Shown: piece by piece, positions 6,680-59,929 of the stretch
Layout: the number at the start of each line of letters is the position of its first letter
Position numbering within the stretch: the stretch's first letter is position 1
From: Amphiscolops sp. MND2022
Taxonomy: Eukaryota
Length of the DNA: 64,000 nt
Assembly: GCA_964187785.1 (NCBI GenBank)
Contig: OZ076410.1
Location: 40,176,001-40,240,000, forward strand
Reading direction: 5' to 3'
The notes under the pieces: generated by a model
The model's input: the letters and a program-made list of their open reading frames with translations, nothing else
Databases searched by the model: none
Told to the model about the DNA's origin: nothing
Position numbers and translations under genes: made by a program

Positions 6680-8437
6680 CGTCGCACGCATGGGTAGATT
6701 TTACTATTTACTGTTTTCTCTTTTCAAGGGACTGTTCAATTGTTATCTATATTAGTCAGTTCAGCTTCTGTTGCATTTTGCGAAGTACTTTCAGGCGGCC
6801 GTTCCTTTATTGATTAGGTATGAGTAAGAAAGTCTCAATAGCTTACTCTGTGTTATCCTGAAAAGAAGTGCCTTGCGTGTACGCGCGGACAAAAGAAGTT
6901 GCGTGAGTAAATGCAAGGCAATGTATGTAAAAGAGCTATCTGAAAGGGGGAGAAGTATAGGAAATAAATATGTTGAATTATATCACATGAACAGGCATAA
7001 ATACGGAACAAAGTTTTACAGGCGTAGCAGTAATTATTCCAATTTTACAATTATCAGCTGTTACTGAGCAAAAGAGAAATTTGTTTTCAGCCAAAGTAAT
7101 ATTGCTTTCACTTATTTAAATTTAATGCAAGGTATTCATAAAATTTAGCATCGAAGAAATCATTGAACCTTCATTTCAGTTCAGGAATCTTATCAGAATA
7201 CCAAGGTTACAATCCGTTTTAGCGCTTTGACGGAAGTATTTTTCTTTTTGTGTCTCTATTCAATTTTAAAATTGAGTAGCATCAAGACACTTTGGGTAAA
7301 TAAAGTTAAAAGTTAAAGATTATTCTTTCGGGTGAATCTATGTAACGTCGGTGCAGTTGACTCATGACTAGACTAGGGAAAAGGTTTCTATGTTAAAACC
7401 GCTGAACGAAACCAGCATAAAATTTTCTAAGTTAGAAATTAAGATAGCCGCTGAGTGAAATCTGCGGAAAACTTTCTAAGTTAGAAATTAAGATAACCGC
7501 TGGATGAAATCTGCGGAAAATTTTCTAAGTTAGAATTTAAGATAACCGCTGAGTGAAATTTGCTGAAAATTTTCCAAGTTAGAAATTAAGATAACCGCTG
7601 AGAGAAATCTGCGCAAAATTTTCTAAATTAGAATTTAAGATAACCGCTGAGAGAAATCTGCGGAAAATTTTCTAAGTTAGAATTTAAGATAACCGCTGAC
7701 AGAAATCTGCGGAAAATTTTCTATTTTAGAAATTAAGATAACCGCTGAGAAAAATATCTAAGTTATTTTAGACTCACCAAGCCGCGGACTAAGTCGGATT
7801 GAAGGAATTTTTCTAAGACAAGTTGAGCTTGGGAGAAAAGGTAAGAAGTGGATTGGGAGAGAAGGAAAATTTTATAAGATATTAATCAAAGAAAGAAGAG
7901 AGGAAATGGGAAGATAGACTTTTTAAGTCTAAGATAAACGGCAGCGAAATGAGGGGAAAATAAGCAAAAGAAAAAGGGGAAAATAAGAGTCGAGGGAGAA
8001 GAGGGAGAATAAGAATAAGAGAAGGGAAGTGAAGGAAGAGAAGGGAAGAGGGAAGAGAGCTGCTTAAGTTGAGCTCAGCCGTTCGGCGGGAAGAATGAAG
8101 CTCCAGCCTGTGCGCGCGGTATAAAATCAAACCGAGCACTTCTGCTAGCTGGCATGTTTTGCTTGCTACCAATAGTGGCTGTGCTTCATTTTCAAATCTG
8201 CGCGGTAAGTAATAGAAATTTTCACTTGTGCAATTCCTTTCCCGCAGTACTCCATTATTATTACTTTCCTTTGCGGCCGCCAAGTTATGGCCGCCGTTTA
8301 TTTTATTCCCTTCACTTTCTTCGCCTTTACACAACGTTAGTTCTTTTTCCTGTTTTTTTATGCACGTGTCATTTTTAACATAATCAGCACAGTATTACTC
8401 AGATAAGAATTGTTAGAGCGTTAGTCATAGCGCGACA
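6680..8437 (-). repeat. 3' LTR of element 1 (1758 bp)
   Basis: Direct repeat of the sequence starting at 23420; ends in ...GCGCGACA at 8437; the left terminus reads CG instead of TG; minus-strand AATAAA near 6806-6811. Confidence 0.93.
7418..7765. repeat. 49-bp tandem repeat inside the 3' LTR (7 GAT(A/AG)CCGCTG units)
   Basis: Unit approximately gaaaattttctaagttagaaattaagataaccgctgagtgaaatctgcg. Confidence 0.92.
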
Positions 8438-8487: not shown

Positions 8488-9567
8488 TTAGGTCAAGAGT
8501 AAGGGGATATTCGGAGGAAGGTCAGAAAAGATGGGAATGTGGTTTAGCACTAGGGATTTGGGGGAAGGTTTTTCAAATTTGATTTGTATAATAACGGAGT
8601 CGTCGTTTAGAAAAGCTTCTCTGAAGTTTACTAGTAGTTTTGTGTGGGCAATGAAGTCTTCTCGTAGTAGGCCAGGGAGTGTGTAGTCGTTATTGCGGGT
8701 GCTGACACGTTCATTCATGTTGGGGGTGACGGGGAAAGAGACAGACCATTTGTTGTCCTTGTTTTTCTGGTCGAGGAGAGCGACTTCTATTTTGCCGTCG
8801 AAGGGCCATGTTCGTGGGAGAGTGAAATCGCTAAGGTAGAGCTCACAGGAGATTGAGGTGTGAGTTCCACGGAAAATGTTCACCCCGTATGGGAATATTC
8901 GGAAGGATATTTTGTAGCCTGTTAGGTGGGTATTATAGATAGGGCTTGTGAAGCTATACTTCTAGTGGTGAAGGGGGTCATCAGGAGATGTTCGGGCCTT
9001 TCGGTAGAGAGTGGAGAATGCAGCAATTTGCCAAAGACAGGGGTCACTGCTTCTGTGATCGATCGTATTAACCTTGCCGAAGATAGAGGTTTGGCATTTG
9101 ATGGTCGCCCTTAGACCTGAGTTAACAGTTTCTAGCTGTAGGCGCTTTGCTTTTTCTTCTTCTACCGAGTTGTTGAGCTGTTTTATTCGGCTTTCTAATT
9201 TCTGACGATGTTGGTAGATCTCGGTTATTGGGAATGATTTCTGTGAGGTAAAATTTGTCGATTTCTTGTGTTGGTTATTCGGGTTCGTTGATGATTCCCA
9301 TTCGTCTATCCACTTGCTTAGTCTTTTTATTCCCTCTAAAGTCTCGTGTTCGTCAGGGTCATCTGTTCTCGATATTGGTGGCCAGTCGTGGGGATGTTTA
9401 GTGGACGTAAGGGTACTTTGTGGGGTAAAGGGGATAGCGTTTGAGTTTAGTGTGCGATTCATTGTGCGGAAATTGATCGTAGTGGGACTGTTAGTCTTTG
9501 TCCTTTCAACGTTGGGTTTTCAATGGTATACTCTTGTCTCCTGCTGTCCCAGAAAACTATTTTCCAT
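8488..9567 (-). pseudogene. TRAF-like protein (coiled coil + MATH/TRAF-C domain, no RING) carried inside the retroelement; two in-frame stops
   Basis: ORFs 8962-9462 and 8488-8883 are in frame across one TAG: 'LWQIAAFSTLYRKA...*KYSFTSPIYNTHLTGYKISFRIFPYGVNIFRGTHTSISCELY...TWPFDGKIEVALLDQ...FLNDDSVIIQI', matching the TRAF MATH pattern (W.I..FS...S.P.YT...GYK..LR.Y..G.G...GTH.S......WPF..K....LLDQ). Preceded by a heptad-rich segment; upstream in-frame ATG at 9567. Confidence 0.85.
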
Positions 9568-9599
9568 GTTGAAAATTGGGGGAGTAAGGTGTATTTTAA

Positions 9600-12229
9600 A
9601 TCTACATTAAATCGAGGTGTCTTGACAAATTTGGCTCTTTTTGTGAAGTACTCCCATTTTAGTTGTTTTTTTAATGGTGCTTCATCTGCGATGATGTGAC
9701 TCCACTGATGGTGGTGTTTTCTGGGGAGTATCCGTCTAATGTCTTTTCCGCCGAATCTGTGTGGGTGTTGTGTGGATGGAATTGGCGGGACTTCTTCTGT
9801 AAACGAGAGCGGAAACGTGAGTTGTTGTTGGTCTGGTGTTGTTGAGGAGGGTGATGTTGTAGTTTGTCGTGTAGGAGGAGAAGGAACTGTTGAATCTGGA
9901 GGGTCTATTAGGAAGTTGATTGTTGTGGGTGATACTGGGGACAGCAGCAGGTCCGACGGGGATAATGGCTCAATTTCTAAATCGTCATCTAGGTTGTCGT
10001 TAGGGTTGTCGTCGTCCAGGTTTGGTAGGTCGAATATTGAGTCTCATTGCTAAAAGTAAGATAATTAGTGAGAAAGTTTTTTCTTTAAATTGGAGCTACG
10101 AAGCGCTGTACTGAGGGGTATAATGATTTCTCTTTTTGTCTCAGGTTTTGAAGTTCTACCTCTTTTATTTCGTTTTCCGTTTTTGTTCTTTGTTCGATGC
10201 TATCCTCAATAGGGGCCGCGGGGTGAATACGGAAGTTAAAACGGAGGTTAAAAAGAGATTGTACGAAGCACTGAGCAAAGTTTTAGTGAAGCTCAGGGTA
10301 TCACCAGTAAGGTGACGAAGTTCGAAATAGCGGAAGACTAGGACCGTGATATCTATAACGAATTTAATAAAGAGAAAAGCGCCGAAATATGCGCCGCAGA
10401 GTTCGAGGACATACGATATACTTCCGAATGTTTCTAAGAATTGGTTTTTGAAGTAGTCGGGTGATATCATACCGTCAACGTAAAAATCTGTACGGGGAGC
10501 GTATAACCCAAATGATTCGGGTCCGCTATGGGCCATGGAAGGGATGATGAGCTCTCGTGAAAACTTCTGGAGGGCATTTCGTGAAGCTGCGCTGATGAGG
10601 ATGTTAACCCAAGTTTCCGAGAGTTGTTTCGGCGTGTACATTCCTGCGTCTTGTGATCCAGCAAAGGATCTAGTGATCATTGGTTGATTGTCCTTGGGGC
10701 CGAAGATAGCAGGTCGGTCGCGATGTTCGGGTGAAGGAGTAAGGGTAAACCAGGAGTCTTTGTCTTCCATGTCCAGTTGAAAGAGGTTTTTAATGCGATC
10801 GCTGCAATTTTGCACGTTCGCGTTAGGATAGGTCTGTCGGGTGATGGGGTCCACGAAGGCAACCACTCCTTTGTAGAAGATGGGTATGCGGTCGTAGCAT
10901 TGGTTCATCGTGTGAAGAGGTGAGTGGGGTTCCGGGCAGTGGTAGAGCCATGCTAGGCTACCATCCGTATTAAGGAACATTGAGCGATTTCACGTGAGCA
11001 TGTATCCGGCGAGTCGTGGGTTTTCCATGGATAACATCAAGATAGTGAGGATTTGTGTTCGTTCTTGTTCACATTGAGCTTTCAATAGTTGGATTTCTGA
11101 AGCTTCGAGTAAGCGGGTGCTCTCAAAAAAGAGATAATCTAACTTCGTTCCTTGGTGGAGCCTGTAATCCATGTTGAGATAATGTGGTGTATTAGGGTTA
11201 GAGTCGCTGGGTCCTCTGAAGAGGTGGAGTCGGCCATTACCAGAACCGTCGTCAGGTGAGTAATATTGAAGTTTAGATGTCTCGCCCATGAAGATGCCGA
11301 GTCTTCTGCCGAAGGTCATGTCGAAGCCACCAAGTTGGATTGAAACGTACAGGGATTCGTAGTTGGTCGTGTATACATCGTCGGGTTTGTTGCAGTACGT
11401 TTGTGGTCTGTTGTAGACCTCGAATAAAAATTTGGTAGTCGAATCGTTGCCGCTAACAATATAGTAGTTAGATCCGTGTTTGATCATGTTCACCATTTCC
11501 TTTCTGTGTTCTGCAAGCACGCAATTATCGGTTTCTGCCCATGTGTATGCGTAGGCGTCCAGTGACGCCGTTTCACAACCAAGTTGCTCCAAAGGACAGG
11601 GAAGGACCATTTGAAACGGTGTGAGGACCTTTCCATCTCGGGTTTTGACGGATAATTCAGCGTCTTGAATGTGAGACTCGAAAGTTTCGCGTTTGATCCA
11701 TCCTCCTGTTTTGCACTCGTTGCGGGTATCAGCGTCGCGTACTCCGTCCCAACTTTTTCCGTATTTGGCGTTTCTCGTCTGTACTTGTTTCACTCCTTTC
11801 TTAAATCTGAGGACTTGTCAATGGATTATGACTTCTTTTCCCTCACCCATTGCCTTACAGGTTTCCGGGGGACAAGGAAAGATCGCTGGTGATTCCGTTG
11901 TGTAGGATTGACATACTGGAGTGGTCGTGACGACCACAATGCCATTCTTCACTCTGGTGTTTCACACGGCACATAGTGGCGTTGATAGCGCGGCGAAAAT
12001 GTTTAGTGTATAACGTTACGCTAGCACGACTTATTTCTAAGTTTTTTGGGGCCACATTAAATTGCTCTACTTGATTCAATGCGTAGAGCTTATTTTGGGT
12101 CATTTCGCGGCAGTCGAAATTAGTAACTCGCAATTTTTTAGCAACGCTAGCGAGGTTCGGCGTTGGACGTTGTGAGATCACAACGGGCGCGTAATAGGCG
12201 CATAACAAGAGTAGGAAAAGTAGTTTCAT
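9600..12229 (-). pseudogene. env: Envelope glycoprotein, gB/chuvirus-like (class III fusion type), fragmented
   Basis: Signal peptide MKLLFLLLLCAYYAPVVISQ; 'FDC...L..V..(C)' start and 'C...HC' pattern; Cys-rich ectodomain; TM segment 'VLELCGAYFGAFLFIKFVIDITVLVF'; long Pro/Ser/Thr/Asp-rich tail. Pieces 11855-12229, 10990-11793 and 10165-10980 are separated by one frameshift and one TGA. Confidence 0.85.
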
Positions 12230-12310
12230 TTTTGAAATTTTTCAGTCTGTTTTTCAATCAACCGCGTAATTGTTCCTTTTTAGAGAAAAAGTTTTAGTGT
12301 TTAGTATAGA

Positions 12311-12750
12311 CCGTAAAGAGGCAAGCTGTAATATCAAACCGGCAGCTTAGCTGGCATGACGCTAAGTGGAGGTTAAAATTTTATAGTAGTAACCTCACTA
12401 CTGTCAAAACGTGCCGAGGGGAACGATAAGTATAATTTTTTCTGTTATTTTGTTTCAGAGATGTGGATCCGTAATAAGGCCGTAAAAAGGCAAGTCGTAA
12501 TATCAAACCGACAGCTTAGTGGGCACTAGCACTAAGCGGAGGTTGAAATTTTATAGTAGTTACCTCACTACTGTTAAAAAGTGCCGAAAAGTATGTTAAT
12601 TATTGTAGTGTCTTTATGTTGCGTATTTGGGGATCCGTCGTAAGGCCGTAAAAAGGCAAGCCGTAATATCAAACCGGCAGCTTAGTGGGCAATAGCACTA
12701 AGCGGAGGTTAAAGTTTCATAGTAATAACCTCACTACTGTTAAAAAGTGC
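12311..12750 (-). ncRNA. Three tandem ~167-nt structured RNA units (pseudoknot + two hairpins) upstream of env
   Basis: Copies at 12311-12416, 12480-12586 and 12646-12750 have conserved stems with compensatory changes between copies (see findings). Confidence 0.6.
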
Positions 12751-12796
12751 AAAAATAGAAGTTTGAAAGAGACTAACTTCAACTATTGCTGAAGGT

Positions 12797-13141
12797 TCAA
12801 TTGTAGTTGTCAAGGATTGATTGGAGACTGGGAGAGGGTTTGTTTCGTCTTCGCGTATCCAAAAATTCGATAAGTTTGGTGAGAAGGAAAAGTGTTAGAG
12901 GGTGGATATGATTTAGGTATGCTATTTGTCTGTATTCCTTGAGGGACTGTGCGAGATCGGCAGCTTCTTGTGAGTCAATGTCTACCGGGATGAGCCAGTG
13001 GCCTGGTTGGTGTGGTCGAAGACTATGGATTTCGATTTGGACCACTGCGGCGCTGTCTTTCCAAGCGATAGAGAGGATTTCTTGGAGAGTGTTCGTTTCC
13101 GGGTGGCGCCAGAGAAATTTGAGTTGAATCTTAAACATCAT
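12797..13141 (-). CDS. Accessory ORF C of element 1, 114 aa, unknown function
   Basis: Intact ATG-stop ORF whose start overlaps the previous ORF's stop by 11 nt. Confidence 0.65.
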   Translation of the reverse strand: MMFKIQLKFLWRHPETNTLQEILSIAWKDSAAVVQIEIHSLRPHQPGHWLIPVDIDSQEAADLAQSLKEYRQIAYLNHIHPLTLFLLTKLIEFLDTRRRNKPSPSLQSILDNYN

Positions 13142-13526
13142 AGGGGTCGACTAGGCTGTGAAGGTATTCGATTTTAACTTCTTCCTCGAAGGGGTTGGAT
13201 GTGAGAGTGATGTCCATAAAATAAACCAAGTCGTCGAAAGCCTTGTCTTTGAGGACGGCGGGGTGCTGGAGTATGTATTGTTTGAACGAAAGGAACCAGT
13301 AGGCGTATTCCTTGGATCCGAAGTGGATAGGGAAGAGTACTAGAGCTTCTTTGTCTTCTGGTGTGAGAATACGAACTTGAATCGCTGAGGTAGTGATCTC
13401 GTAGAAGGTTGACTGTATTTCGTATTGTCCCTTAAGTTGGTTGGGAGTCCAAGGGACCGGAGGTTGAAATTGAGTGTGGAAGTAAAAGTTGTTTCCGCGA
13501 AAGACAGCCACAGCGGGAGAGGACAT
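13131..13526 (-). CDS. Accessory ORF B of element 1, 131 aa, unknown function
   Basis: Intact ORF; its ATG overlaps the upstream stop in TAATG. Confidence 0.68.
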   Translation of the reverse strand: MSSPAVAVFRGNNFYFHTQFQPPVPWTPNQLKGQYEIQSTFYEITTSAIQVRILTPEDKEALVLFPIHFGSKEYAYWFLSFKQYILQHPAVLKDKAFDDLVYFMDITLTSNPFEEEVKIEYLHSLVDPYDV

Positions 13527-13768
13527 TAGATGACAGACTTGGCTCTAGTAGAGACGTCTGTAGGTGTGTTATTATATAGCAAGCTTTCCAGAAAAGGGTA
13601 GATAGGTGATGCGGGTACACACGTGTAGGTTTCACTTTCTTCTTCTACAATTGCGTAGGCTTGAATGATGATGTTCTGCGTTGAGGGTTCCTTCTGGATA
13701 TCTGTGATTTGTGAGAGACGGTTGTCAATTTTGAAGAATATGATCATCTGTGGGTGGTGTGGAGTCAA
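13526..13768 (-). CDS. Accessory ORF A of element 1, 80 aa, unknown function
   Basis: First ORF of a stop-start coupled chain of three. Confidence 0.55.
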   Translation of the reverse strand: MTPHHPQMIIFFKIDNRLSQITDIQKEPSTQNIIIQAYAIVEEESETYTCVPASPIYPFLESLLYNNTPTDVSTRAKSVI

Positions 13769-14175
13769 TCACTGGCATTCATAAATCATAGCAAATCGGA
13801 GAATGGAATCATCAGTTATTTCATTGCTTTTGGGAGTCGAAAAAGGTCTATCTCTGCCCAGGCGGAGAGAGTAGAGAGTAAGAAAAACGAAATCTTAAAT
13901 GTATTAATTTAGTTACATTAAATAGGATAAACAGATGTAGATATTGATATACTGCACTATGTCTACTGGTTCTAGCCTGAAGTTTGATGGGCCAAATGAT
14001 CCGCGTGTGCTTGTCAGACTTTGGGTAGGGAGTGGTAGGCGTATATTCATTTCTTTGTAGCAGTATCGTTTGATAGAAAGAAATTGGAGTCGATCTTGAC
14101 TGGTCTGAGGATTATCCTCGGCCAGGAGGATTTTAATGTCTCATCTAATCTGTCTTTCTGTTGTAATATCAAAAG

Positions 14176-14880
14176 ATGGGAAGTCAGGAGAATTACGAAG
14201 ATGAGCGGGAGTTCGTGCGAGAGGAAGTTATCCTGGAGGGAACATTAGAAGAGGGGGTCGTCATCACTTATTCGGAGGGTGATGATTATTATGAAGAGCC
14301 CTCTTCGTCTTCGTCCTCCGAGTACCTGCCATCGGATGTGGAAGGCCTCGTGGGCGAGTTTGTCGAGCCACCTCTGGAGCCAGAGCCTGAGGCAGGCCCC
14401 AGCGGGCCAGATACATCGCGGCCAGTGGCTGTAGTACATCCTGAAGGACGTAATGTATCCCCCGTCCCTTCGTCTAGTAAAGGGGGTGATCCGGAAGATT
14501 TCGAGGATATGGGCAATCCCCTGTTGGAGTCCTTTAGAGGAATATTTAATCGAAATGATTTGGATATCCTTCAGTCGTGGATCCTGAATACCCGGGCATC
14601 ACTGGGTACGGAGGGGTTTGTGGTACCACATGCACCTGTTCTGCTCGCGTTCGCTAGCTTCCTTGAGGTAGATATCGGCCACACGTGGGAGGAGGTGCTG
14701 CTGTCTCAGTCGGTCGAAGTGCACCTTGCTAGGCTTTCAGCCTATATTAGTGGATGGTCAAGAATGACCATGTTCCAGCGGTTACAGTGGGAGCGAGTGT
14801 ACCAGTATTGGACTCCGGAGTCTCGGCGGGAGCAGCTCCGTTTGTTGGCGGAGAGCGGCGGGTTCCTCGTCGTGGAGTAG
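14176..14880 (+). CDS. Antisense accessory ORF of element 1, 234 aa, acidic N-terminus and helical C-terminus
   Basis: Intact 705-nt ATG ORF (AAGATGG context) opposite to gag-pol; it mostly does not overlap a long sense ORF, so it is not a shadow frame. Confidence 0.72.
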   Translation: MGSQENYEDEREFVREEVILEGTLEEGVVITYSEGDDYYEEPSSSSSSEYLPSDVEGLVGEFVEPPLEPEPEAGPSGPDTSRPVAVVHPEGRNVSPVPSSSKGGDPEDFEDMGNPLLESFRGIFNRNDLDILQSWILNTRASLGTEGFVVPHAPVLLAFASFLEVDIGHTWEEVLLSQSVEVHLARLSAYISGWSRMTMFQRLQWERVYQYWTPESRREQLRLLAESGGFLVVE

Positions 14881-15448: not shown

Positions 15449-18400
15449 TTCGAGTTCTTTCGCGAAGGATGGATTGTTGTGCAGGTTGATTGGGCTGTGC
15501 GCGTTGATAGCGTGGATTTCTTTCTAAGTGACGGGCGACTGCTCTCCTTAGTTCTTGCAAGGGAGTTGGCGATTTGGTCAAAGATGCTGGGGTGTTAGTT
15601 GGGGGTGCTGGAGTCGGTTGACGTTGTGTCAACGTCAGGATAGGGGTTGTGGTGTCTCGAGGATGTGAGGTCGAAGGCTGATCGTGAGTCTTTGGGGTTG
15701 CCAACAATTGATTTTCTGGAGAGATGATACCAGAGTCTCTGATCTGGGGGGTTTGCGTTCTTTTGCGGGCAAGTATTTGGTCTCGTTGGTTCCGAACCGG
15801 CAATATGCAGAGATCTCAAAGCGTTTGTGGTTCTGAAACATTAAGTTGTTCAATTCGTCCCTTGACAAGATTGTTATAAAAGTCCGTGTCTCCACGGTGG
15901 GGAGTTGTGTATTCTTCGATAAGAGGGGGGAGTGTTTCCTCTTTAGGAAAGTATTCTATTAGATGATTCCTATGTACAGTTCGGAGATTCTCAGGGTTTT
16001 GATCTTCTGTTATTTGGTAGGTTGTATTGGTAATTCTTTTGGTAACCGTAAAGGGTCCTAGTCGCAGTTTTCGGCTTTTGGAGAGATCTTTTCGGTGGTT
16101 TTCTAGCAGAACCTTTTGTCCTATGTTGAGGTGGTTTCCAAGTTTAAATCTGTTTCTGTAGGCGTGTGAGCGAGCTGTTTGTTATCTGCACTTTTCGTAT
16201 ATGGATGAGTAGATCTTTTTGAAGGCGGTTTCTCGGTCCAGCAAGCTTTGTGATATTTGTGGCCTTAATAGTCCATTTAGTAGTTCGTTTTTGACTTGGT
16301 TTTCGCTATGGCAATGGGGAGGTAATCCGTTACAAAACTGTGATCTGCAGTTCTTGATTTTGTTCCTATAGAGTCCTAGCTTAAGACTCATAGGTATTTG
16401 CGGCTTGTTGCAGAACACTATTTCGTAGGGGGTCTTTCCGGTTCTGTAGTTGACGCTTGTGTTGTGGGCAAATGCAAATTTAGCAGCTAGTTGGGCCCAG
16501 TTGTTTCCTGATTCGTTTATGAAGTTTCTCCAGTACCTTGCAATGTGTTGGTTTTGAGTTTCGACTTTGCCATTTGTCCAGGGTGAGTGTGCAGTTCTTG
16601 GTCGAAGAGTAATGCCAAACTCTTTCGTCCAATTGACGAATCCAGTGTTCACGAAGGCTGTTCCTCTATCATGTATGATAGATTGGGGGATGCCATAATG
16701 CATAATCCATTTTTCCATAGCGTTGATTGTAGATTGTGCTCCGGTATCTCTAACCGGGTATGCCATCAAATAACGTGAGAATGCGTCAATAATGGGGAGG
16801 CAATGTGAATTTCCGCGACTAGGAGGGTTGAGTGGTCCCTTGTGATCGATATGAACCGTTCTGAACACCTGGGTCTCGGTTTCACAGTCTTCCAGAGGGA
16901 CTTCGTTATTTCTTCGTTGTTTAGATTTGTTAGATTGACAGCTAACACAATCTTGCGTGAGGGCACAGATCCAGTCGTGCATTCCAGGCCAGTAGTAGAA
17001 TCGTTTAGCATTTAGGTAGGTTTTTTCAGCTCCCATGTGGCCGCCCAGGTCGTTGTAATGTCCCATTCGGAAGCAGGCTAGAAATAGGGAGAGAGGTAGG
17101 CAGATTCTCAGGTTTTCGTCTGCCGTGTCGTCCGTTGGCTCGTTGTAACAGAGGAGGTTTCCTTGTTCTTCTATAGTTAGTCTGTCGAACTCCTGAAAGT
17201 AGCGCATGAGGCCCTTCGAGTGTTGTAACTCTGGTGACTTTGGCGTAGGCTTGTTTCCTGCCTTCATCCATTGTCGAACCGCACTGAGGACTGGGTCATT
17301 AATTTGTTCTTGTAAGATCGTTGTGACATTGAGTTCTGCTTCTCTGGATACTTTATCAAGTTGCTTGATGAATTCTTGTGCTGGCATCCTTTGTTTACCC
17401 GTTGTTGTTTTGGGGGTCTCGAGATTTTCTATCGTTTTGTCTTTTTTCGACGTACACGGGCTAGGTGCTATGAGGTCTGTATTTAAGTCGTAATTGATTT
17501 CGTTCACTTCTTGTGGTTCGTCTTCTGTGAGGGCTTCATCGTCAGCGTCGCTGTTGACAGAGCTGTAAGTGTTTTGTGATATATCGGAAGTGCTTCCTCT
17601 CGTGCCCGATCTGATTCGTAGCTCTTCGTATTTTCCAATTTCCTTTCCGGCGTCAAAACAACTTTGTGCTGTTTCTATTTTCGGGAGGTTAGGTTCCTCG
17701 TAGATATTGTTGACTCTGAAATTATTTCCATCGTTTTGTAGGTGGAGTATTTTCCGTTCTTCCCCCTTTTCGTATAAGATAGGATAGAAGTCATTTTTTG
17801 AAGTCTCTTCGTTTTCCTCGTGTTCGATCTTGTAATGAACTTGTGTCCCGTGCTCGTCGAAGAAGTGTATGTCGTTGGGTAAGATCTTGTGGCTGAGTTG
17901 ATGCTTCTTATGTTCCTCTATGGAGACGTTTCGGCTGAGTATATCAGGGAAGGCTAAGTTGCTTACCGGCGTCCATATTATCTTTAGATTCGGGAATTTG
18001 GATATAATCACTTGGTACCTGAAGAAGCGCGGTGAGACTTGTCCTTTTCGCCCCCAGAGATATAGAATCGGTTTATGGTCACAATACAAGTAAATCGGGA
18101 AAGGCGATCCGATGATGTAGTGCTCATAGGTTTGAAGAGCTGAAACTGTACCGCATAGTTCTCTATGTAATGTGGACATCTTTTGTTCTTCTTTTGCAAA
18201 AACTCGAGAAGTGAAAGAAATAATCCGTTTTCCTTCGGGGAAATGTTGTATTAGAATGCATCCGGTTCCTACGTTGGACGAATCGACGTGTATGTGGAAA
18301 GGGTACTTTGTTGAGGGTACAGCAAGGACTGTGTCCTCGCTTATTCTCTTCTTGATTTCCTGAAAGAGGTCTTCGTCCGCTTGTTTCCAACAGAAGTTCG

Positions 18401-19609
18401 TATCTTTCTTGGTCAGTTCGTAGAATGGTCGACTATCTACGTGAAGATCCTTGATGTAGCAGCTATAAAATCTTAGAGCCCCTAGGAAGATTTTTACTTC
18501 CGTTTTTGTTTTTGGCGATTTGAGATCGTGAAGATCCCTGACTCGTTTAGCCACAGGTTGTATTCCTTCAGCTGCTATCACATGTCCCAAGAACTTGACT
18601 TTTCTTGCGAAAAAGAGTGTTTTGTCAGGCGCGGCCTTGAGTCCTGCCTTCCGTAATAATTGGTGGTATTCTTGGATCACTGTGAACATTTCTTGTTTGT
18701 TTTTGGCCTGCATCAACGTGTCATCGATGTAGGTAATCGCTTGTTTCTTTTTGATTAGCGGTTCGAAGTGGATAGTCATCATACGACTGAAGAAACTTGG
18801 TATTCTTTTAAATCCGTAGAATCCTCTGGTAAATGTATATTGTTTGCCGCCAATTATGAAGCTAGTGAGTTTCTGTGTGGGCTCGTCTAGTGGAACTTGG
18901 TGAAAAGCGCAAGAGAGGTCACTTACTGAGAAGATTTTCCCGTTGATGTGCGTCATTATGGTTTGTATTGGTTCCAAGGGCCAGGAGTAATTTGTTAGAT
19001 CGGTAACTGAATTCAGGTACCTTGCGTCTATAATCAGCTTGACGTAACCGTGTTTTGGTTGTAGGATGATAGGATTTACGAATAAGGATCCCATTTCGTC
19101 GTCATCTCCCATCTCTCGAATGATGTCTGCCTCTTTGAGTTGTGTTAGTAGTTTTTCTAACTTCTCCCGTAGGTGTAATGGTACCTTACTAGGTCTCTGT
19201 CTCTTCAAAATAGCTCCCTGTTCCAGTTTAATGTTGAATTTCTGACGAGTTTTCCCGACGTCGAACTTGTGTTGTGAGTATACATCCCTAGCATCCATTA
19301 GTAGGTCTATTAGTAGAACCAGTTCTTCATCTGTGAGGTCTGAGTAGCGAAAGTCGAATTCTTTGATGTATTGAACTGCTTCTTTGTTCTGATATTGGAG
19401 ATAGTATTCGATGAGTCGTTCGTTGTCTTCCTTGGGCCTAAATATCTTGAATTGGTCGTCGCAAGGTGGTTGACAAGACTTCGCGTCGTTTGTAAAGTCG
19501 GTTTCCTGTGCTTCAAGTGAAATTCTTCTGAGAACTGTTGTATTTCGTCTTCTAGTGCGTATTCGGGGTCTCCTCTGGTTGTCATGGCGTAAACATCTAG
19601 TTCGTTTCT

Positions 19610-20040
19610 TGTATAAATTCGGAGTTGTATTTCTGAGTAGGCGAAAACGTCTTGAATAATTTGTGTAACGTCTTGCCATTGGAAGTCTTCTAGTTCTGAG
19701 GCTTCCCGTAACATCGAGACTGCCTTGATACTATTCATTTTGGCCTGTGCTTTTAGTGTCTCCAGCGATTGGACTAAGATTTGTGGGTCAATTTTGTCTT
19801 TCGATTTAGTTTTTGTGATTAGTACGTATATAAATCGTTTTAGGGTCATGTCCCAGTAGAGTATTGTATCTCCTTTTTGTGGTTTTTGTTTTGCGCAGGA
19901 GTCTTTTAGTGAGGGTATGTTCGTTAGAATTTCTTTAGAGAAGCCTTTGGCTGGTTTTAGATCAACCGGGACAAAGATGATGATAGAATCTGGTCTGCTA
20001 AGTATTGTTGTAGAATTTCCTGCTTCTATTCTGAGGCAAT
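19610..20040 (-). other. TARG1/OARD1(Poa1p)-like macro domain embedded in pol
   Basis: 'LRIEAGN...DSIIIFVPVDL...GDT...RFIYVLITK...ILVQSLETLKAQAKMNSIKAVSMLR...LEDFQWQDVTQIIQDVFAYSEIQLRIY' aligns by eye along its full length with TARG1 '...DSLAHCISEDC...RYIYYLITK...LQKSLEAMK...[26 protein letters not shown]...I.ITVY'. Confidence 0.82.
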
Positions 20041-20910
20041 CGTTCATATCTTGTGAAGGGATAGTGGAGTGTAGTAAGAGGCAATCATTGTATTCTTCAT
20101 TTTCGCTCAAAATGGTGTAAGCGAGTTCGGTAGGACTTCTAATCTGATATTTTGTGATTTCTTTGTCAATGATGTCTAGCATAGAGTATCCAATTGTTCC
20201 TTTTACTAGTGTGATTGTATGGTTCTTGTTGTTTTCCATAACATCTGGCAAGGTCCTCTCGAACCGTGTGCAGAGGACATTTATGAAGTTGAGTCCTGTG
20301 GAAACTGCCTTTCGGTTTGGTAGGAATGTAGATCCGAGAGGAAAGGAGTTCTTCGCGTTTTCGGGGGCAAATTTGTAGCATCTTGTTGTTTTCGGGTCAA
20401 TGTACACAGAGTGGGGGATTTTTGCTGTTATTATTTGCGAAACATAGGGGTAGACTTTGTTTAGTTGAAGGCTATCATAGCAGAAGGTATTTAGAGGTCT
20501 CATGAGCTCTATACCGGGGAGGTCAAAATGTTTTTTGTTGATCTGTTCTTGGCAGAAATGCATTCCAAGAAGGTTCTGTGTCTTCATCTCGGTGATCCAG
20601 ACTGTCAGAGGGAAGTTGTGTTGGCCGTCGGAGTCATAGAAGAGTCTTAGTGAGATATATCCCATCATAGGAATGATTTGACCAGAGTAGTTCCGTGTTG
20701 TGTTGTTGCTCCTTTTGAGTTCGAGGTCTTGTTGAAATTGGCAAAGTTCTCTAAAGGTCCTATAGTTGATGATTGAAGATGTTGCCCCTGTGTCAAGTAG
20801 AAATTCAATTTCCAAGCCACTATCTTTTTGTGAGTCTCCGGCAGCAAAATAATAAAGATTAAGACTAAATTTTAACGGGGCACTGCTGCTATTTTCATTT
20901 CTCGGAGACC

Positions 20911-22354
20911 TTAGTAGTTTAAAGGACGAAAGTCGGCTACCGAGTTCACCGAGTAGTCAGTTTCTATGAATTGTACTATGGATCTTCCCATGTCGTTAGT
21001 CTTGGAAATCTTTGTTCGTAAGATTGAGTAGGGGTGCTGGGAATTTCGTTTCTGTTTTGTCTCTGGAAAACTGAGTTACTCCTTGGTGGAAGAGGTTGTA
21101 TGTTGCGGTTGAACGAACTAAACAGTCCTCTATTGGAGACAAATGGAGATCTTGCTCTCTGTGGTCCAGGAGAGACGTTCCTAGAATTGATAGTGTTGTT
21201 GGAAAAGGGTCTTCGCGATTCTTGTGAAAATCTCGATTTATTAGGGTCAAACCTTGTGTTCATAGTTCTGCGTTCTGGGTTAAAGTTTCTGTTCTGTGGT
21301 CTATCGAATCGGTTCCAAGTAGGGGTTGCTTGTAGAGCTCCAGCGAGCGCCAGTTGATGTGCCTGCCACAGCCATATGTTTTTGGAACTCCGAATCGGGT
21401 AATCTTGACTGAAATCTTGAGCCATGTCCAGGTCCGGTTCTTTTGTTGTAATCGTTGGTGAAGTTATTCTCTTTTCTGTGTTAGCCTCATTTTGAACTTT
21501 CTTAACTTCTTCGTCTCTCATCTTCTTTCTGCACCAGTTAGGTGTATGTCCATTCGTTCTGCAGTAGCCGCAGAATCGTGTGGCCATTATTCGTCCTGTA
21601 GCATCTACTGTTTTCTCTACTGCGTTGATCGTGTTATTCATCTGTTCTTTGATTTGTAGTTTAATTCCCTTCAGGTCGTCTCGCATTTCCTGTATGAGTG
21701 GGTCTGCGTGTGATTCTCCGCCAGTGAGGGCGGTAGTTACTGTGTAGGAATGGTCTTTGTTTATTACTGCTTGTGAAAATTGCTCCCAAGTTCATTCGGG
21801 TGGTCCATTAGATATTCGTGTGCCTTTTCCCTCAGCTTTGGAGGTCTTAGGCCTCTCAGTGAGTAGTCGATGCACCTTTGTCTTCTTTGTCTGTCTTGTG
21901 CTGCTCTTTCTGCATTTCTGTCGTTTTGGGCAACGCCAGCAAGATCATTTGGCCAGCCTTTCCCCACGACAATTTTGATTCTGTGTAGGAAATTCTTGAT
22001 CTCTTCTCCTTCTCGTCTGGTAACATGTTCTGCTTCTATTCTGTGCCTGAATTTGTTTCTGCCATCTGCGAATCGTGTGATGAACCTTTCTCTGATTTCT
22101 GCCCAAGTGTTAGCGTCTGTGATGCTGGTCTCGAACCACTCCGCTGTGGGTCCTCTTAGTAGTGTAGCAAAGTAGGATTTTCTTCTGGAGTTGTAGTCGT
22201 CAAGTGCTGCTCCGTTTGCTGGGGTATCGCCATGAGAAAATCGGAACTTCTTTTCGATTAGCTGTATAAATTGTTCAGGATCTTGATTTGGGTCTGTTCC
22301 TGTGAATTGGTCTCTGCCGAGGTCTGGATAAGCAAAGTAATTTTGCGCAGCCAT
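20911..22354 (-). pseudogene. gag: Gypsy gag (capsid-like domain + CCHC zinc knuckle), frameshifted
   Basis: 'LRGPTAEWF...TWAEIRERFITRF' retrotransposon gag pattern; CGYCRTNGHTPNWC = CX2CX4HX4C. Confidence 0.9.
20917..20923 (-). promoter_or_regulatory. -1 ribosomal frameshift slippery heptamer U UUA AAC at the gag/pol junction
   Basis: The gag frame ends CCT TTA AAC TAC TAA (PLNY*); the -1 frame TTT AAA CTA... stays open through to FLLDTG. Confidence 0.8.
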
Positions 22355-23400
22355 TGTGAGCTGTTGAAATTATTAGAGAAAGGAATTGTAGCAACGAATA
22401 GTAAATTAAGGATTCGATTAGGTAAGATACTTCAGGTCTCTGTGAATAACCACAAAGGACTAAGGTAAAAGACGCTCTTGCAAGGATTCTAAAGATTATA
22501 AGAATTAGGCAGGCCTGACTTTGCATATACTCAGTAGTATGCAAAAAAAAAATTTTGAAGATCTCGCCTCTCAGCTTAGGAGATGTTAGTCCTCTGGTTT
22601 AAATATTTCAAACCCAAAAAATTAGGGGATACTTACAAATCCCGCTAAATTTAGATGATTAACAGAAAGGGCAATTCTGGGTATACCAATCCTCCGAATT
22701 AACCCAAAGAAAGGAAAATATGGAGAGTAAAATCGGTCCAAAAGGTCTTCAATTCGCTAGTCTAGCCTTTCAATGGCTTTTGTAGAAGTAGCGCAACAAA
22801 CAAACAGAGGGAGTCACTCTCGTCCTCAGGATTAAGTAGCCCGGGGCCAAGATCACTATCATGCAAACACTAGGGTACTATCACTAGAATTCTTAGAATT
22901 CTAGGTTTCCACCTTGGATTGCTACACAGGTTCCTGGACACCCACTGGGCTCACGGCCTTCAATCAGCCTCCGAGGAGACCTAGGCGGGCTTTTCCTTAA
23001 TATGTGTCCGTCTGGACTCGAGTGAATTTCCCAACTGTAAGTTTAAATTCCATATTAGAAAACAGTTTCATTCTTGTTAAGGACCGAATGTAATCTCATA
23101 GCGTTTCTGTATAATTAATATAAGTAAATCAGCTCTAACCGTTTTGGGGATTGAGAGGGCTAAGTTGAGCGGTGCACAAAGTTTTCCGAAAGCTGTTAAG
23201 CTGGAGAGATTCTATTGGAATACTTACCAGCAGTTCTATGATTTATATAGACCAAAGAAGCCACATATTGAGGCAGTAGGAGAAAAAAGAAAATAAGAAT
23301 TAAAACTAAGAGAAATAGGTAATTAACCGTGACTTCTGAGAGTAGGGATTCTAACAGATAGCTCATTTACTTCTCTTTTAAAAGAGAGAAAGAATTAAGC

Positions 23401-23416: not shown

Positions 23417-24156
23417 GTTTGTCGCACGCATGGGTAGATTTTACTATTTACTGTTTTCTCTTTTCAAGGGACTGTTCAATTGTTATCTATATTAGTCAGT
23501 TCAGCTTCTGTTGCATTTTGCGAAGTACTTTCAGGCGGCCGTTCCTTTATTGATTAGGTATGAGTAAGAAAGTCTCAATAGCTTACTCTGTGTTATCCTG
23601 AAAAGAAGTGCCTTGCGTGTACGTGCGGACAAAGGAAGTTGCGTGAGTAAATGCAAGGCAATGTATGTAAAAGAGCTATCTGAAACGGGGAGAAGTATAA
23701 GAAATAAATATGTTGAATTATATCACATGAACAGGCATAAATAAGGAACAAATTTTTACAGGCGTAGCAGTATTTATTCCACTTTTACAATTATCAGCTG
23801 TTACTGAGCAAAAGAGAAATTTGTTTTCAGCCAAAGTAATATTGCTTTTACTTATTTAAATTTAATGCAAGGTATTCATAAAATTTAGCATCGAAGAAAT
23901 CCTTGAACTTTCATTTCAGTTCGGGAATCTTATCAGAATACAAAGTTTACAATCCGTTATAGCTTTGACGGAAGTATTTTTCTTTTTGTGTCTCTATTCA
24001 ATTTTAAAATTGAGTAGCATCAAGACACTTTGGGTAAATAAAGCTATAAGTTAAAGATTATTCTTTCGGATGAATCTATGTAACGTCAGTCCAGTTGACT
24101 CTTGACTAGACTAGGAAAAAGGTTTCGATGTTAAAACCGCTGAACGAAACCAGCAT

Positions 24157-24550
24157 AAAATTTTCTAAGTTAGAAATTAAGATAGCCGCTGAGTGAAATC
24201 TGCGGAAAATTTTCTAAGTTAGAAATTAAGATAACCGCTGAATGAAATCTGCGGAAAATTTTCTAAGTTAGAATTTAAGATAACCGCTGAGTGAAATTTG
24301 CTGAAAATTTTCTAAGTTAGAAATTAAGATAACCGCTGAGAGAAATCTGCGGAAAATTTTCTAAGTTTGAAATTAAGATAACCGCTGAATCAAATCTGCG
24401 GAAAATTTTCTAAGGTAGAAATTAAGATAACCGCTGAGTGAAATCTGCGGAAAATTTTTTAAGTTAGAATTTAAGATAACCGCTGAGAGAAATCTGCGGA
24501 AAATTTTCTAAGTTAGAATTTAAGATAACCGCTGAGAAAAATATCTAAGT
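24157..24550. repeat. 49-bp tandem repeat inside the 5' LTR (8 units)
   Basis: Same unit as 7418-7765 with one extra copy. Confidence 0.9.
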
Positions 24551-25011
24551 TATTTTAGACTCACCAAGCCGCGGACTAAGTCGGATTGAAGGAATTTTCC
24601 TAAGACAAGTTGAGCTTGGGAGAAAAGGGAAGAAGTGGATTGGGAGAGAAGGAAAATTTTATAAGATAATAATCAAAGAAAGAAGAGGGGAAATGGGAAG
24701 ATAGACTTTTTAAGTCTAAGATAAACGGCAGCGAAATGAGGGGAAGATAAGCAAAAGAGAAAGGGGGAAATAAGAGTCGAGGGAGAGAAGAGGGAGAATA
24801 AGAATAAGAGAAGGGAAGTGAAGGAAGAGAAGGGAAGAGGGAAGAGAGCTGCTTAAGTTGAGCTCAGCCGTTCGGCGGGAAGAATGAAGCTCCAGCCTGT
24901 GCGCGCGGTATAAAATCAAACCGAGCACTTCTGCTAACTGGCATGTTTTGCTTGCTACCAATAGTGGCTGTGCTTCATTTTCAAATCTGCGCGGTAAGTA
25001 ATAGAAATTTT

Positions 25012-44000: not shown

Positions 44001-47000
44001 CGGAAAATCAAGAAGACATTTCTAACAGTGTTATGAACAAACTCTTTAGAAAATCAGTTTGTTTTCCGAAAACATTCCATACTAAAATTTCTCACGGTCT
44101 ACTTTTTTTCCACTCTTTGATGCGTTTCGGGCAAGTCTGCTTTTTCAGAAATTATTTGTGGTCTCCCTGGTCTGCAGATATCGAAGGAATAACACCCCAA
44201 GTGGTTTTGATTCCACATGACAGATCCTCAGCCCATTCTCCGTGGCTGTTTTCCCAATACGTTTGAAATATTCTCGAGTCGAAAGTTTCGGCAATATGCG
44301 CGAACTACGCCCCGAAACCAATAGCAACTGACAAATAATCAACGTTTCCAGAAATCGCTAGCAGTAACCGCCTCGAGTAACCGTCACATGCACGATTACT
44401 TTGAATCAAGTTCGACTTTTGAAGAAACAGGTAGTAAAATAAAAAAAAACTTGTCAAACAAATAGGATGTTGTTTTTAGCTGATTGAAATCGTCTCAAAT
44501 TTGCCATTAATTACGTCGCAACTCAAATCAATAGACATCTTAGCCACGCAGTTGTTCGAAATCGGCGCATAACAGTTGAGATCTTGGTAACAACCTGTTG
44601 CCTTGTCGAAAGGAGTCTAAAAGCTAGACAACTGCGACCTGTCACTTCTGATGCGGCCGATTTGAAAGCATCATTTTCAAAACCTCAACTTCATAGGGAA
44701 CTGCTGCTTCCGCTTTACCATTGCACACTTTTCCGACTCCATTGGAATTAATGGTTAAAGTGCGTACCATAGCATAGCCGACTCTCTAAATAGTCCAGCC
44801 AGTCAGGCATGCAACTTTTGATAGGAGATTGTCTAGACTATCGAACGAAATTTACATGAAGACATTATCCACTGGCTCGTTTTGTCAAGTTGAATTTTGG
44901 CAGCGATGTCGTCGCGTTCCGTTGAATTGAAGACTACCGCCGTATTTCTTGTTTGTTTTTGTTGTGAAGCTCACCCTCTCTGAATTGGAACTTTTGATGA
45001 TTCTTCGAAACGTATCACAACGTGTTGTTTTATCCATTTTGTATGTTCCTGAGTCATTTTAAAAACATCTGCTCGGTCCCGGAGGATGTTGCAAAGCATT
45101 TCAAAAGAGAATGAACAAAGAAAGTATCAGACCTTTTGGCGTAATGGTAAAAGATTAGACTTTAAAGCTGCAAATTGCAGGTTTGAATCCCCATAATTGC
45201 TCTCGTTTGCTACTTAGTAGAATAGAGAAATGTTACCTTCTCAATATTGATGCGAAGTCTTCGATGTTGTGATCTCAAAACTTCAAGGTGTTTTAGTTTA
45301 TTACTTAACTAACAAGACGCGCCGCTGACTTGATGACATGATTTTGAGGCTCATTATTTAGTCACTTCACTATGAATTTTCATGAAAAATGAAGGAATGA
45401 AAGTTTTACACTTTCCGATTCATCATATCCCATTTTAAACCCTATTTAGAAACACACTATTTAGGCTTTCTACAGTATTGTTTAGTTGTTGAACTTAGTT
45501 ATTAGCAGTACCTAATTCACCATATTTTGATGTTTTATCTACACAAAAAGTTAATTTACACCAAAATTATCAAAAATTTGAAGTATTAACATTTCGACTT
45601 CTTTGGGCCGATAAGTCACTTTGACGCGCTTTTCAAAGACAAAGGTGCACACACTCTTGCAAAATGCCCGGAATGTTGCAACTGGATGCCGGATTTAGTC
45701 GATGGTGCTTTATTACACCATTCCGACACGCGAATTAGCTCGGACATTCTACAAATAGTTGCATGAAAACGCTTTTTGGATTTTTAGTTGTATTCCGAGT
45801 TTTTTTAACGGGAAGACTGCGGAAAATTTTTTGATGCCATTGCACAAATAGTTCTCTAATATAGGGTAGAATGACTAGAAAATTTCATTCGAATCGTATG
45901 AAGAGTTTTTGAGAAAATCGAAAAAAGTCGAGAATAGACTGTTTTTTGGCCATTTTGGGTTAATTTTGGCTATGGATAATTTGTGGCTATGTGCACATCC
46001 CCGTCATGCACGTTTGATGCCATTGCGCACCAAAGCGGTCCCTTTAGGTGTAGAAAGACTGTGCAAAATTTCAAAATCGTATGGACAGTTTTTGAGAAGT
46101 TTGAAGTTATCATTGATAGGTCGGGAGACAAAAAACGGCACGATTGCTTAAGTAGTCGAAAATTTTCTCCGACTCCTAAAAACAAGAAACGTTATATCAG
46201 GTATCCGTTATATCCGGAATTCATCATATCCGGTTTGTGTTAAGTCGTATGGACAGTTTTTGAGAACTTTGAAAATTTTATTGAAAGGTCGGGAGAAAAA
46301 ACACGATTGCATTTGTAGTCAAAAATTTTGTCCGACTCTTAAAAACTATGAAACAAACCACAATTGTCCAATTTTTCCCTCTGATTTAGAGTCATTCTGA
46401 AGTGCTTTTAAAGCGAAACAGTGCAACTTTCTTTTCAAAAAGGGGTAATGCATAGCTTGTTCTTTCGTCTTCGACCGTTTTGACCCTCTAACACAAGAAT
46501 ACTATAAAATATGATAGTTTAGGAATTTCGTAATTTTCAAGTTGAATTTAGGGCCTTTTTCGAATAAACAAATGCATTTACCTCTTCACAAATGTCTACT
46601 GGACGGTGAATTTGTTCCTTATTTGCCGTTTTTACTTTCTAAGCCACGAAGTTGATCGAGTTTTTGATAACAATTGCAATAAAACGTTAAACTTCGGAAA
46701 CTTTTGCTAGTTTCGTTTTTCAATGGTTATTTTTGGATCATTATCTTGATCTTTGGGATCAACCAAAAAAGTCGAAAAATCTCTAAAAATACATTACGCA
46801 TGAAAATTTATGTTAATTCATTCTATGGGTTAAACCTCTAACTTGGAAATAATTTTGGATCATTCGGAACAAAAAAACGCGCCTGATTTATAGTTTTTCG
46901 TTTCCCCTATCAAAAAACGGGCGAAAAATAACAACAAAAGCAGCAAATTACTGCTTCCTTATAGAGTAATAAGTGTGTGACGTAAATATACCAGTGTGAC

Positions 47001-47225
47001 TAAGGTGCTAGAGCACAATGCATGTAACTGCTTCAGTTAGAAGCAAACCCGTAAAAAGAAAGTTGCGAAGCAGGGGGTTGAGCTGTTAAAGACTTGTTGG
47101 ATGTTTATCTTAATTTCTTTTACTGAACACATAAGAAGTTCTTTGAAGTCTTAACAGGAGTAGCGTCTAGATAGCTATCTTTTCTACTGAACTGAGTTTG
47201 ACTAGTTTGAACTGAGATCTCAGAA

Positions 47226-47239
47226 TTCTTTTTCTTCCT
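47226..47239 (-). promoter_or_regulatory. Candidate PPT of element 2, implying a 3' LTR whose inner end is the CA at 47222
   Basis: Minus strand AGGAAGAAAAAGAA followed 3 nt later by TGAGATCTC; partner LTR not in the window. Confidence 0.35.
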
Positions 47240-48712: not shown

Positions 48713-49231
48713 TTATAACGTTGTAATTGTATACCCAAAATCGAGAAGGGTAGCATTCAATGCGTCTATGGCGTCATCTAGAGCGGTTTGGAAGTAGTTG
48801 TCCTTAGTTGTAAATGCCGAATTTAGGACGAATACTGTTTCTGAAAATGTCTCGCACACAGCGATTTTTGGGCCTTCAACATGAATGCGATAGTATTGTT
48901 CGAAATTTATATGTTTTTTCTTGATATGACATACATTGTAAAGAACTTTCAGGAAGGAACCTCGGGTAGGAAGAATTACATTGCCATTGTTGATTTCCAG
49001 TGACATTTTGTAAGCCATAGTGTGGAATGTGGCGGCTTTTAAACTATGGACTTTAGAGGTTGTGGAATTAACAAGCTTTTTGATTTCAGAGCTTTGCGGA
49101 GCCATTAGAAGAAGAACGAGAGCTGAAATCCTGGTAGACGTTTTTGGAGTTTGCGGAAGCTGAAAGAAGTCCAGAAGGAGGAAGAAGAATAGAAGTTTGT
49201 GAAACAGATGGAGTCTTAGATTTGAAGACAA
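48713..49231 (-). CDS. Post-env accessory ORF of element 2, up to 172 aa, unknown function
   Basis: Intact ORF with globular, non-repetitive composition; alternative start at MAPQ. Confidence 0.62.
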   Translation of the reverse strand: MSSNLRLHLFHKLLFFFLLLDFFQLPQTPKTSTRISALVLLLMAPQSSEIKKLVNSTTSKVHSLKAATFHTMAYKMSLEINNGNVILPTRGSFLKVLYNVCHIKKKHINFEQYYRIHVEGPKIAVCETFSETVFVLNSAFTTKDNYFQTALDDAIDALNATLLDFGYTITTL

Positions 49232-49510
49232 AATGCGAGGAGTTTTTTGTTATATAATCTGGTGCTATAATATGTATGTCATTTTCGTACTATAGAGGAA
49301 AAGAAATTCTGAAAAGAGTTGAAAAAGATAGTGCTAGAAGATAGATTAGAAAGTAAAATATGTGAAAATGTTCGTGCCATAAATATTGTCGCAAAATTTT
49401 TGGAAGTAAAATAGGAATGTGGCCTGTAGTTTGGGTTGAAAAAGTTCAATAGAGAAAAGTGTACCATATCGTACGAAAATGGAAGAAATTTGTAATATCT
49501 GAGAGATGAT

Positions 49511-59926: not shown

Positions 59927-59929
59927 GTG

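Follow-up and report, generated by a model that had tools for sequence, protein, structure and literature searches.

Tandem, covarying pseudoknotted RNA units upstream of env in Ty3/gypsy endogenous retroviruses of an acoel

Results

An envelope-carrying Ty3/gypsy element with many internal genes

The window, a 64,000-nucleotide stretch (C2:40176001-40240000) of the 1.07-Gb genome of the acoel Amphiscolops sp. MND2022, carries on its minus strand an 18-kb Ty3/gypsy LTR element with a class III envelope. The 5′ LTR (23421..25011) is 94% identical to the 3′ LTR (6681..8222), which contains 49-bp tandem repeats. Between them, also on the minus strand, lie gag and pol (15816..22369), in pieces but in Ty3/gypsy order by Pfam (protease, TARG1-like macrodomain, reverse transcriptase (RT), RNase H, integrase); two small overlapping accessory ORFs, c and d (12797..13544), for which no Pfam family scored below E 0.09; immediately 3′ of these a non-coding spacer (12230..12796) that separates the accessory ORF stop from the env AUG and is AUG-depleted in younger copies; env (10165..12229), encoding a class III (Monjiviricetes-type) fusion glycoprotein (PF24664, E 3.5e-05 and 5.7e-14); and two further ORFs (8488..10043), the final one with a TRAF/MATH domain by Pfam. 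With LTRs only 94% identical the insertion is decaying, and its env is split into three reading-frame pieces; in other copies env is ~715 aa long. Five younger natural copies (LTRs 98-100% identical) have the order gag-pol, accessory ORFs, a 340-1090-nt non-coding spacer, env and two more ORFs.

These elements fall into four env families, which we call A (the window element), B, C and D; env identity to A is 75% for B, 60% for C and 57% for D. On its LTRs, gag, PR-RT-RH-IN order and class III env we place the carrier in the env-carrying Ty3/gypsy group, errantivirus in the sense of the main text of PMC13524379. The ‘ancient errantiviruses’ with an HSV/gB-type env that this text presents are, like the carrier, multicopy, recent gag-pol-env LTR elements with a class III fusogen; the carrier differs from them in its length (17-18 kb), many accessory ORFs, macrodomain and TRAF domain.

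Several features of the element and its surroundings deserve mention in their own right. The TARG1/OARD1-like macrodomain sits in pol between protease and RT (19313-20200, minus strand; E 3e-09 to PDB 4j5r), and the TRAF/MATH domain in the last ORF (8488-8961, minus strand) is possibly a captured immune-signalling module. Accessory ORFs are linked by stop-start overlaps (UAAUG, AUGA), a sequence arrangement that suggests termination-reinitiation. Those of C and D form a paralogous family (E to 1e-38) that Pfam does not match and that is only weakly linked to the A and B accessory ORFs; no accessory protein received a Pfam or Atlas assignment, Atlas giving only sub-0.9 matches for ORF c. In families A and B the ORF 3′ of env (200-227 codons) has no Met and starts in phase after a U-rich UAG, suggestive of splicing or a non-AUG start. 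The gap between pol and the accessory ORFs contains an antisense acidic ORF of 237 codons (14167-14880, plus strand) with no Pfam match, and a similar strand-flipped stretch is present in other element copies. Outside the element, a ~6.5-kb unit occurs in three near-identical tandem copies at 26000-47300, and 47000-64000 (minus strand) is taken up by another gypsy-like element, which is decayed and has a tandem repeat of 1670 bp in the gag region.

Three tandem units between the last accessory ORF and env

A preliminary description of this DNA had proposed three tandem structured-RNA units just upstream of env, and three units of ~110 nt each are indeed found at 12307-12752 on the minus strand, between the last accessory ORF and env. 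Read 5′ to 3′, the fold comprises a strand X, 7-12 mostly U-rich bases, a 5-bp stem S1, one U (L1), a 7-bp stem S2, a 9-nt A-rich loop L3, one C, a 7-bp hairpin H2 whose loop pairs with X, one base, a hairpin H3 of 4 bp with an 11-nt loop, and a 3-bp hairpin H4. The 5′-most unit (12642-12752) has X at 12751-12746, S1 at 12738-12734/12725-12721, L1 at 12733, S2 at 12732-12726/12711-12705, L3 at 12720-12712, H2 at 12703-12680, H3 at 12678-12660 and H4 at 12657-12644; it carries a rare AUG at 12720 and mismatches within the X helix. In the middle unit (12476-12586), X lies at 12585-12580, S1 at 12572-12568/12559-12555, S2 at 12566-12560/12545-12539 (two pairs broken), H2 at 12537-12514, H3, a U-A variant, at 12512-12494 and H4 at 12491-12478. 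The env-proximal unit (12307-12416) has X at 12415-12410, S1 at 12402-12398/12389-12385, S2 at 12396-12390/12375-12369, H2 at 12367-12345, H3 at 12343-12325 and H4 at 12322-12309, with one H2 and one H3 pair broken and a rare AUG at 12357. It ends 78 nt before the env ATG at 12229, close to the ~80 nt first given. The three cores are 82-86% alike; the two linkers, 55% alike where shuffled linkers reach 50%, diverge as had been described. A palindromic GGAUCC stands 3′ of H4 in most family A units (for example near 12630), kept amid diverged linker.

Some parts of the original structural model required correction. Its H-type pseudoknot with an A-rich loop is supported, but the 6+6-bp dimensions are wrong: they would leave no loop-1 base, and the data fit an S1 of 5 bp, a single-U L1, an S2 of 7 bp and an L3 of 9 nt. 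The reading on the element’s sense strand is supported by G-U types common to several insertions, but the S1 G-U of the 5′-most copy, on which it had leaned, is weak evidence because it is a rare variant (2 of 178 units). By established geometry, the loop lengths suit an H-type pseudoknot on the sense strand only. The compensatory changes claimed for the two hairpins hold in the family: the last H2 pair is U-A in 60 units, U-G in 105 and C-G in 13, and H3 has U-A in 28. The earlier model lacked the pairing of a 5′ GGCAC with the H2 loop, and the 3′ hairpin H4. A closing helix between 5′ GGCA and 3′ UGCC was dropped because the competing pairing of X with the H2 loop covaries.

Covariation supports the predicted fold

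Across 47 of 48 distinct cores (the one left aside, from A2, lacks H2), 94% of cells pair and double changes occur at 13 of 31 pairs. None of 500 shuffles matched this pairing, a contrast inflated by the relatedness of the cores, and slid controls pair 25-50%. Among 178 of 179 distinct genomic units (one was left out of pair counts), the variant pair types found in at least two insertions comprise 9 Watson-Crick, 6 G-U and 7 non-pairs, so that 15 of 22 keep pairing; five of the seven shared non-pair types come from a fixed H2 register that misfits family B and two fall at the terminal S2 pair. One-off variants, with 0 Watson-Crick, 5 G-U and 30 non-pair types, break pairing in 30 of 35.

The helices differ in the evidence behind them. 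S2, H2 and H3 have compensatory changes and S1 has none in 178 units; S1 thus rests on complementarity and invariance, the latter partly enforced by the detection anchor. S2 has three double changes, but they come mostly from three near-identical B elements and so represent few independent events. In the X helix a single pair covaries, with 131 of 166 units of one type and 29 of the other; this is probably one event, and X is lacking in two of three B units. L1 is U in 178/178 units and the junction C is kept in 177/178; L3 and the H3 loop are near-invariant, and the latter looks T-loop-like. H2 is wholly different in sequence among family B units and keeps its shape. Single helices are weak (-2.9 to -9.3 kcal/mol), folding energy alone is not significant on either strand (z -0.8 to -1.9), and RNAalifold predicts a weak structure (-8.6 kcal/mol) that recovers S2 alone, with double changes at 5 of 18 pairs against 13 of 31 in the named structure. 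The predicted fold as a whole, with an H-type pseudoknot and a long-range one between X and the H2 loop, is well supported by covariation; the three-dimensional fold of the units is inferred.

The units are conserved and match no known family

Pattern searches, which count pattern matches rather than RNA-model matches, gave 267 genome matches to the pseudoknot against 3 in the control and 285 to the H3 loop against 21. Arrays hold 1 to 5 units among 66 locus rows. With our RNA model, R1, the window and whole A and B elements showed units before env and nowhere else, while C and D elements showed none (18 sources).

Conservation of the cores far exceeds that of their surroundings. A2 and B agree at 35% of env four-fold sites (54/153), yet their 54-nt pseudoknot-plus-H3 cores are 89-96% identical; A and B cores are 85-96% identical. 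A and A2 agree at 61% of pol four-fold sites; their cores are 96-100% identical and their linkers 38-64%, against 50% for shuffles. Neutral duplication, with cores 85-96% identical while env synonymous sites are 35% identical, is thereby excluded. Together, covariation and core conservation strongly support the proposed selected cis-acting RNA on the sense strand.

The view that the units match no known family also stood: Rfam 15 gave 0 matches at E≤10 in window positions 11500-13500, only sub-threshold matches in 5 loci, and 0 at the gathering threshold in 40 kb. Viral contigs had 0 pattern matches and no env relatives were found among them. Metagenome contigs yielded 7 env relatives at 32-62% identity; neither these nor the C and D loci gave a significant R1 match (11 sources, best E 0.14). 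For the large env clusters P0003, P0021 and P0022, the scored matches in the genome include no close copy. In these searches the motif was seen in families A and B of this genome only. By eye, the layouts of hammerhead, HDV, twister, pistol and hairpin ribozymes do not fit the units, and T runs within the unit led us to reject Pol III genes. We regard the units, on comparative sequence evidence, as a real, selected, uncatalogued multi-pseudoknot RNA with a putative function, among at least two new intercistronic motifs of these elements.

Families C and D carry different tandem arrays

At the position equivalent to the A/B array, C and D carry different structured tandem units. Four helices covary in those of family D (40 units, 8 loci). 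Their 5′ domain, a sister motif of ~50 nt, has 882 exact pattern matches in the genome against 0 in controls; five copies stand before env in D, and C has it 6-10 times in tandem ahead of an accessory ORF. In the C array, the last unit starts 67-69 nt before the accessory ORF AUG, which is preceded by a U-rich CAG, and the spacer has 0 AUG against 8.6 expected, an expectation inflated by the tandem copies. The pre-env spacer of family C has a third, multi-hairpin tandem unit, and a short hairpin near env is common to C and D. Because the sister motif is reused before an accessory ORF, these arrays resemble leaders that serve internal genes in general, a point against packaging.

The spacer avoids AUG and its linkers end in YAG

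In the spacers of the four families, AUG is the most depleted of the 64 trinucleotides (3 against 22.6; 3 against 17.2 after masking repeats). The gap between pol and the accessory ORFs is not depleted (77 against 65), and the LTRs are AUG-poor too (33 against 59.8). The stretch from first unit to env is AUG-free in 54 of 60 locus rows (6 of the 66, without a recognisable env start, were dropped), and the spacers of the four families contain three AUGs, each of them 5′ of the first candidate acceptor. The env AUG follows the last H3 by 38-96 nt, or 77-96 nt in family A, where the env frame is closed 4 codons upstream of it.

Linkers (16 multi-copy types) run from A-rich (pyrimidine fraction Y 0.43) to pyrimidine-rich (Y 0.60-0.63) and end in YAG at the 5′ edge of the unit; in 176 of 178 units, C or U precedes the AG. 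In family B, each of the three linkers closes with a U-rich tract and CAG. The tracts of A and A2 are moderate, their unit-start AGs failing a filter of Y≥11/14, and in one common unit type a purine-rich stretch precedes the AG. The sister motif often has GAG where A/B units have YAG. We found no fixed YAG before the family A env AUG, 7 of 54 loci having none within 60 nt. Elsewhere in these elements, strong acceptors stand 6-8 nt ahead of the starts of other internal ORFs. The poly(A) hexamer AAUAAA is found in the C-env, C-array and D spacers, at the upstream stop or shortly 3′ of it; in A and A2 there is none near that stop, and in B only one at -84.

The host genome has spliced-leader genes

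A spliced leader has been published for an acoel in which, according to PMC9911081, 30% of genes are trans-spliced. This leader has 2775 matches in the present genome against 2 in controls, with array copies bearing a GU donor, and from these sequences the host very likely trans-splices. A spliced-leader gene array with a ~904-bp period lies at C1:16380000-16383000 and presumably alternates with 5S rRNA; three of four other loci look like leader-capped retrocopies. A search for leader-env retrocopies, confined to acceptors within 17 nt of the AUG, gave 4 matches against 3 in controls, none with a leader, and pairing or likeness between units and leader RNA extends to at most 6-7 nt.

The units fit no established class

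The dicistrovirus IGR (type 6) and type 4 IRESs resemble the units in combining pseudoknots with invariant-loop hairpins between cistrons, before a structural protein. The type 6 IRES directs a non-AUG start in frame directly after its last pseudoknot; the closed frame and distant AUG of family A do not share this arrangement, and the units further differ from both types in being tandem, in the variable distance of the AUG, in a frame not open from the pseudoknot and in having no Rfam match. In nematode operons, the proposed logic of the intercistronic Ur element and SL2 trans-splicing is a cut at the upstream 3′ end, an exonuclease halt and leader addition. The route to env that we propose below would share this logic; the units differ in that their conserved fold is far larger and borne by a mobile element, with no pairing to a host leader RNA detected.

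Tandem redundancy, as in our units, is found in the flavivirus class 1/2 xrRNAs. The class 3 xrRNAs of Solemoviridae/Tombusviridae, as the cited part of PMC12397905 describes them, are likewise compact pseudoknotted RNAs, intergenic before a structural gene, and a T-loop is possible in the units also. On inspection against that description, the units have an L2 of 0 nt, no P2 and no AGY after S1; they lack the P1-J1/2-P2 stem with in-loop L2B and AGY and the flavivirus three-way junction, and their T-loop-like element is a separate hairpin. The closest layout is that of the Watson-Crick type of coremin xrRNA (xrRNA-C / xrRNA-WCC; cited sections of PMC10321173 and PMC10520033), some members of which are intergenic. 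It has a short S1, one invariant L1 base, an A-rich loop, an S2 opening GAG/CUC, one base, and then a hairpin conserved in shape only (PMC10321173), and the units have the short S1, the 1-nt conserved L1, the A-rich loop, the GAG/CUC opening of S2 and the shape-conserved hairpin one base after S2. In place of a 4-bp hp1 with a YGAD or YGNNAD loop, however, the units have a 5-bp S1 and an 8-nt loop UGA...UA, and in place of an 8-10-nt hp1-hp2 spacer they have 17 nt (L3, the S2 3′ strand and the C). They also differ in the 7-bp S2, the extra H3, H4 and X pseudoknot, the tandem arrangement and the retroelement setting, and their nuclease resistance is putative. Because they depart from coremin, class 3 xrRNA and type 6 IRES in the dimensions that define each, we file them under no class.

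Discussion

Env follows gag, pol, at least four accessory ORFs and a long non-coding spacer, and thus needs an initiation route of its own; in some way the units probably serve downstream gene expression. The reading that we favour, tentatively, is that exonuclease roadblocks preserve a subgenomic env RNA that is capped by spliced-leader trans-splicing, a possibility suggested by analogy. An upstream cut of the long multi-gene RNA would give a nuclease a 5′ end, the units would act as leaky roadblocks stalling 5′-to-3′ exonucleases, and the protected 3′ part, the subgenomic env RNA, would gain its cap when the leader is trans-spliced to a U-rich YAG within the array or 3′ of it, where use of the AG is presumed. 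The array copy number fits redundant leaky blocks, and the spliced-leader genes remove the main objection to a subgenomic RNA made by decay, namely that it has no cap. The preliminary description held that splicing that removes the units would refute it; with leader genes present, splicing becomes part of the favoured mechanism and no refutation.

Counted for the roadblock reading are the coremin-like layout, the T-loop-like H3 loop, the xrRNA-sized sister motif, AAUAAA in C/D spacers, the leader genes, YAG with pyrimidine-enriched linkers, and the position of the three spacer AUGs 5′ of the first candidate acceptor; counted against it are the unmatched coremin dimensions, A/A2 spacers without AAUAAA, moderate tracts, no fixed YAG, no leader-env retrocopy, AUG-poor LTRs and the recovery of S2 alone by RNAalifold. 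In the cited parts of the literature, a T-loop anchors class 3 xrRNAs (PMC12397905), frameshift-type pseudoknots with an added hairpin are not Xrn1-resistant (PMC10321173) and coremin reduced scanning about five-fold (PMC10520033). Such a reduction fits badly with an array kept AUG-free throughout.

That avoidance of AUG, which the gap after pol does not share, is best explained by a modular scanning-type IRES, in which units would bind an initiation factor or the 40S via their invariant loops, ribosomes would scan to the env AUG and extra copies would add capture. Weak single helices and near-invariant L3 and H3 loops agree with such modules, but the position of the AUG and the closed family A frame exclude type 6 or type 4 geometry, a ~50-nt sister module is smaller than known structured IRESs, and a trans-splicing host has a simpler route. 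Complementarity to 18S rRNA is not unusual (154 of 300 shuffles are as good). Some errantiviruses do carry IRESs (cited part of PMC3383448), and we consider an IRES here doubtful. The same units might instead be structure-gated trans-splice acceptors without nuclease resistance, their folding metering the share of genomic RNA that becomes leader-capped env mRNA. The AG forms the first two S1 pairs and the X helix encloses a U-rich tract, which would explain why S1 is invariant, and the family B linkers, the strong acceptors of other internal ORFs and the leader genes point the same way. However, S1 invariance would also follow from a minor-groove triplex, and in part from the detection anchor; this model leaves the invariant H3 loop unexplained, and the moderate family A tracts and the GAG of the sister motif count against it, so that we regard it as unlikely.

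Of the three functions first proposed (IRES, exonuclease-resistant RNA, packaging or export signal), the last has become the weakest, given an AUG-depleted spacer and a sister motif that recurs before a different internal ORF, neither of which it predicts. An RRE- or CTE-like response element that binds a protein, possibly an accessory one, and serves the export, packaging or stability of unspliced RNA would suit the invariant loops, the tandem copies, the several small accessory ORFs and the way accessory ORFs and motif are common to A and B, and likewise to C and D; the accessory proteins’ want of any Pfam or Atlas assignment speaks against it, and we judge it quite unlikely. The most improbable readings are a DNA-level internal promoter array, a ribozyme array or neutral duplication. 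L3 reads TATAAAA, TATA-like words occur in A and D units and internal starts would also favour an AUG-free leader, but the helices that cover the TATA word show covariation, and its G-U intermediates are on the sense strand; no Rfam ribozyme matched and cleavage would presumably destroy genomic RNA; and core conservation opposes duplication without selection. These readings, from roadblock to promoter, do not all exclude one another.

The literature searched, which included few subscription journals, held no description of such arrays. The main text of the survey PMC13524379 makes no mention of acoel, splic-, IRES or RNA structure, and does not address env expression in non-insect env-carrying Ty3/gypsy elements. 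Before internal genes, these elements carry compact folded RNAs that covary in natural copies and have no Rfam entry. If ribosome recruitment is true, the units would be an unusually small modular IRES; if gated trans-splicing is true, a mobile element would be exploiting the host leader; and if exonuclease stalling is true, xrRNAs would extend to retroelements and bring new scaffolds. A broader picture, in which acoel endogenous retroviruses are operon-like, with exonuclease-resistant RNAs in tandem, interchangeable and of two or more new folds, protecting downstream cistrons that the host spliced leader then caps, is rather speculative as a whole. Should this picture hold, it would mean both a retroelement xrRNA and viral use of spliced-leader trans-splicing for env.
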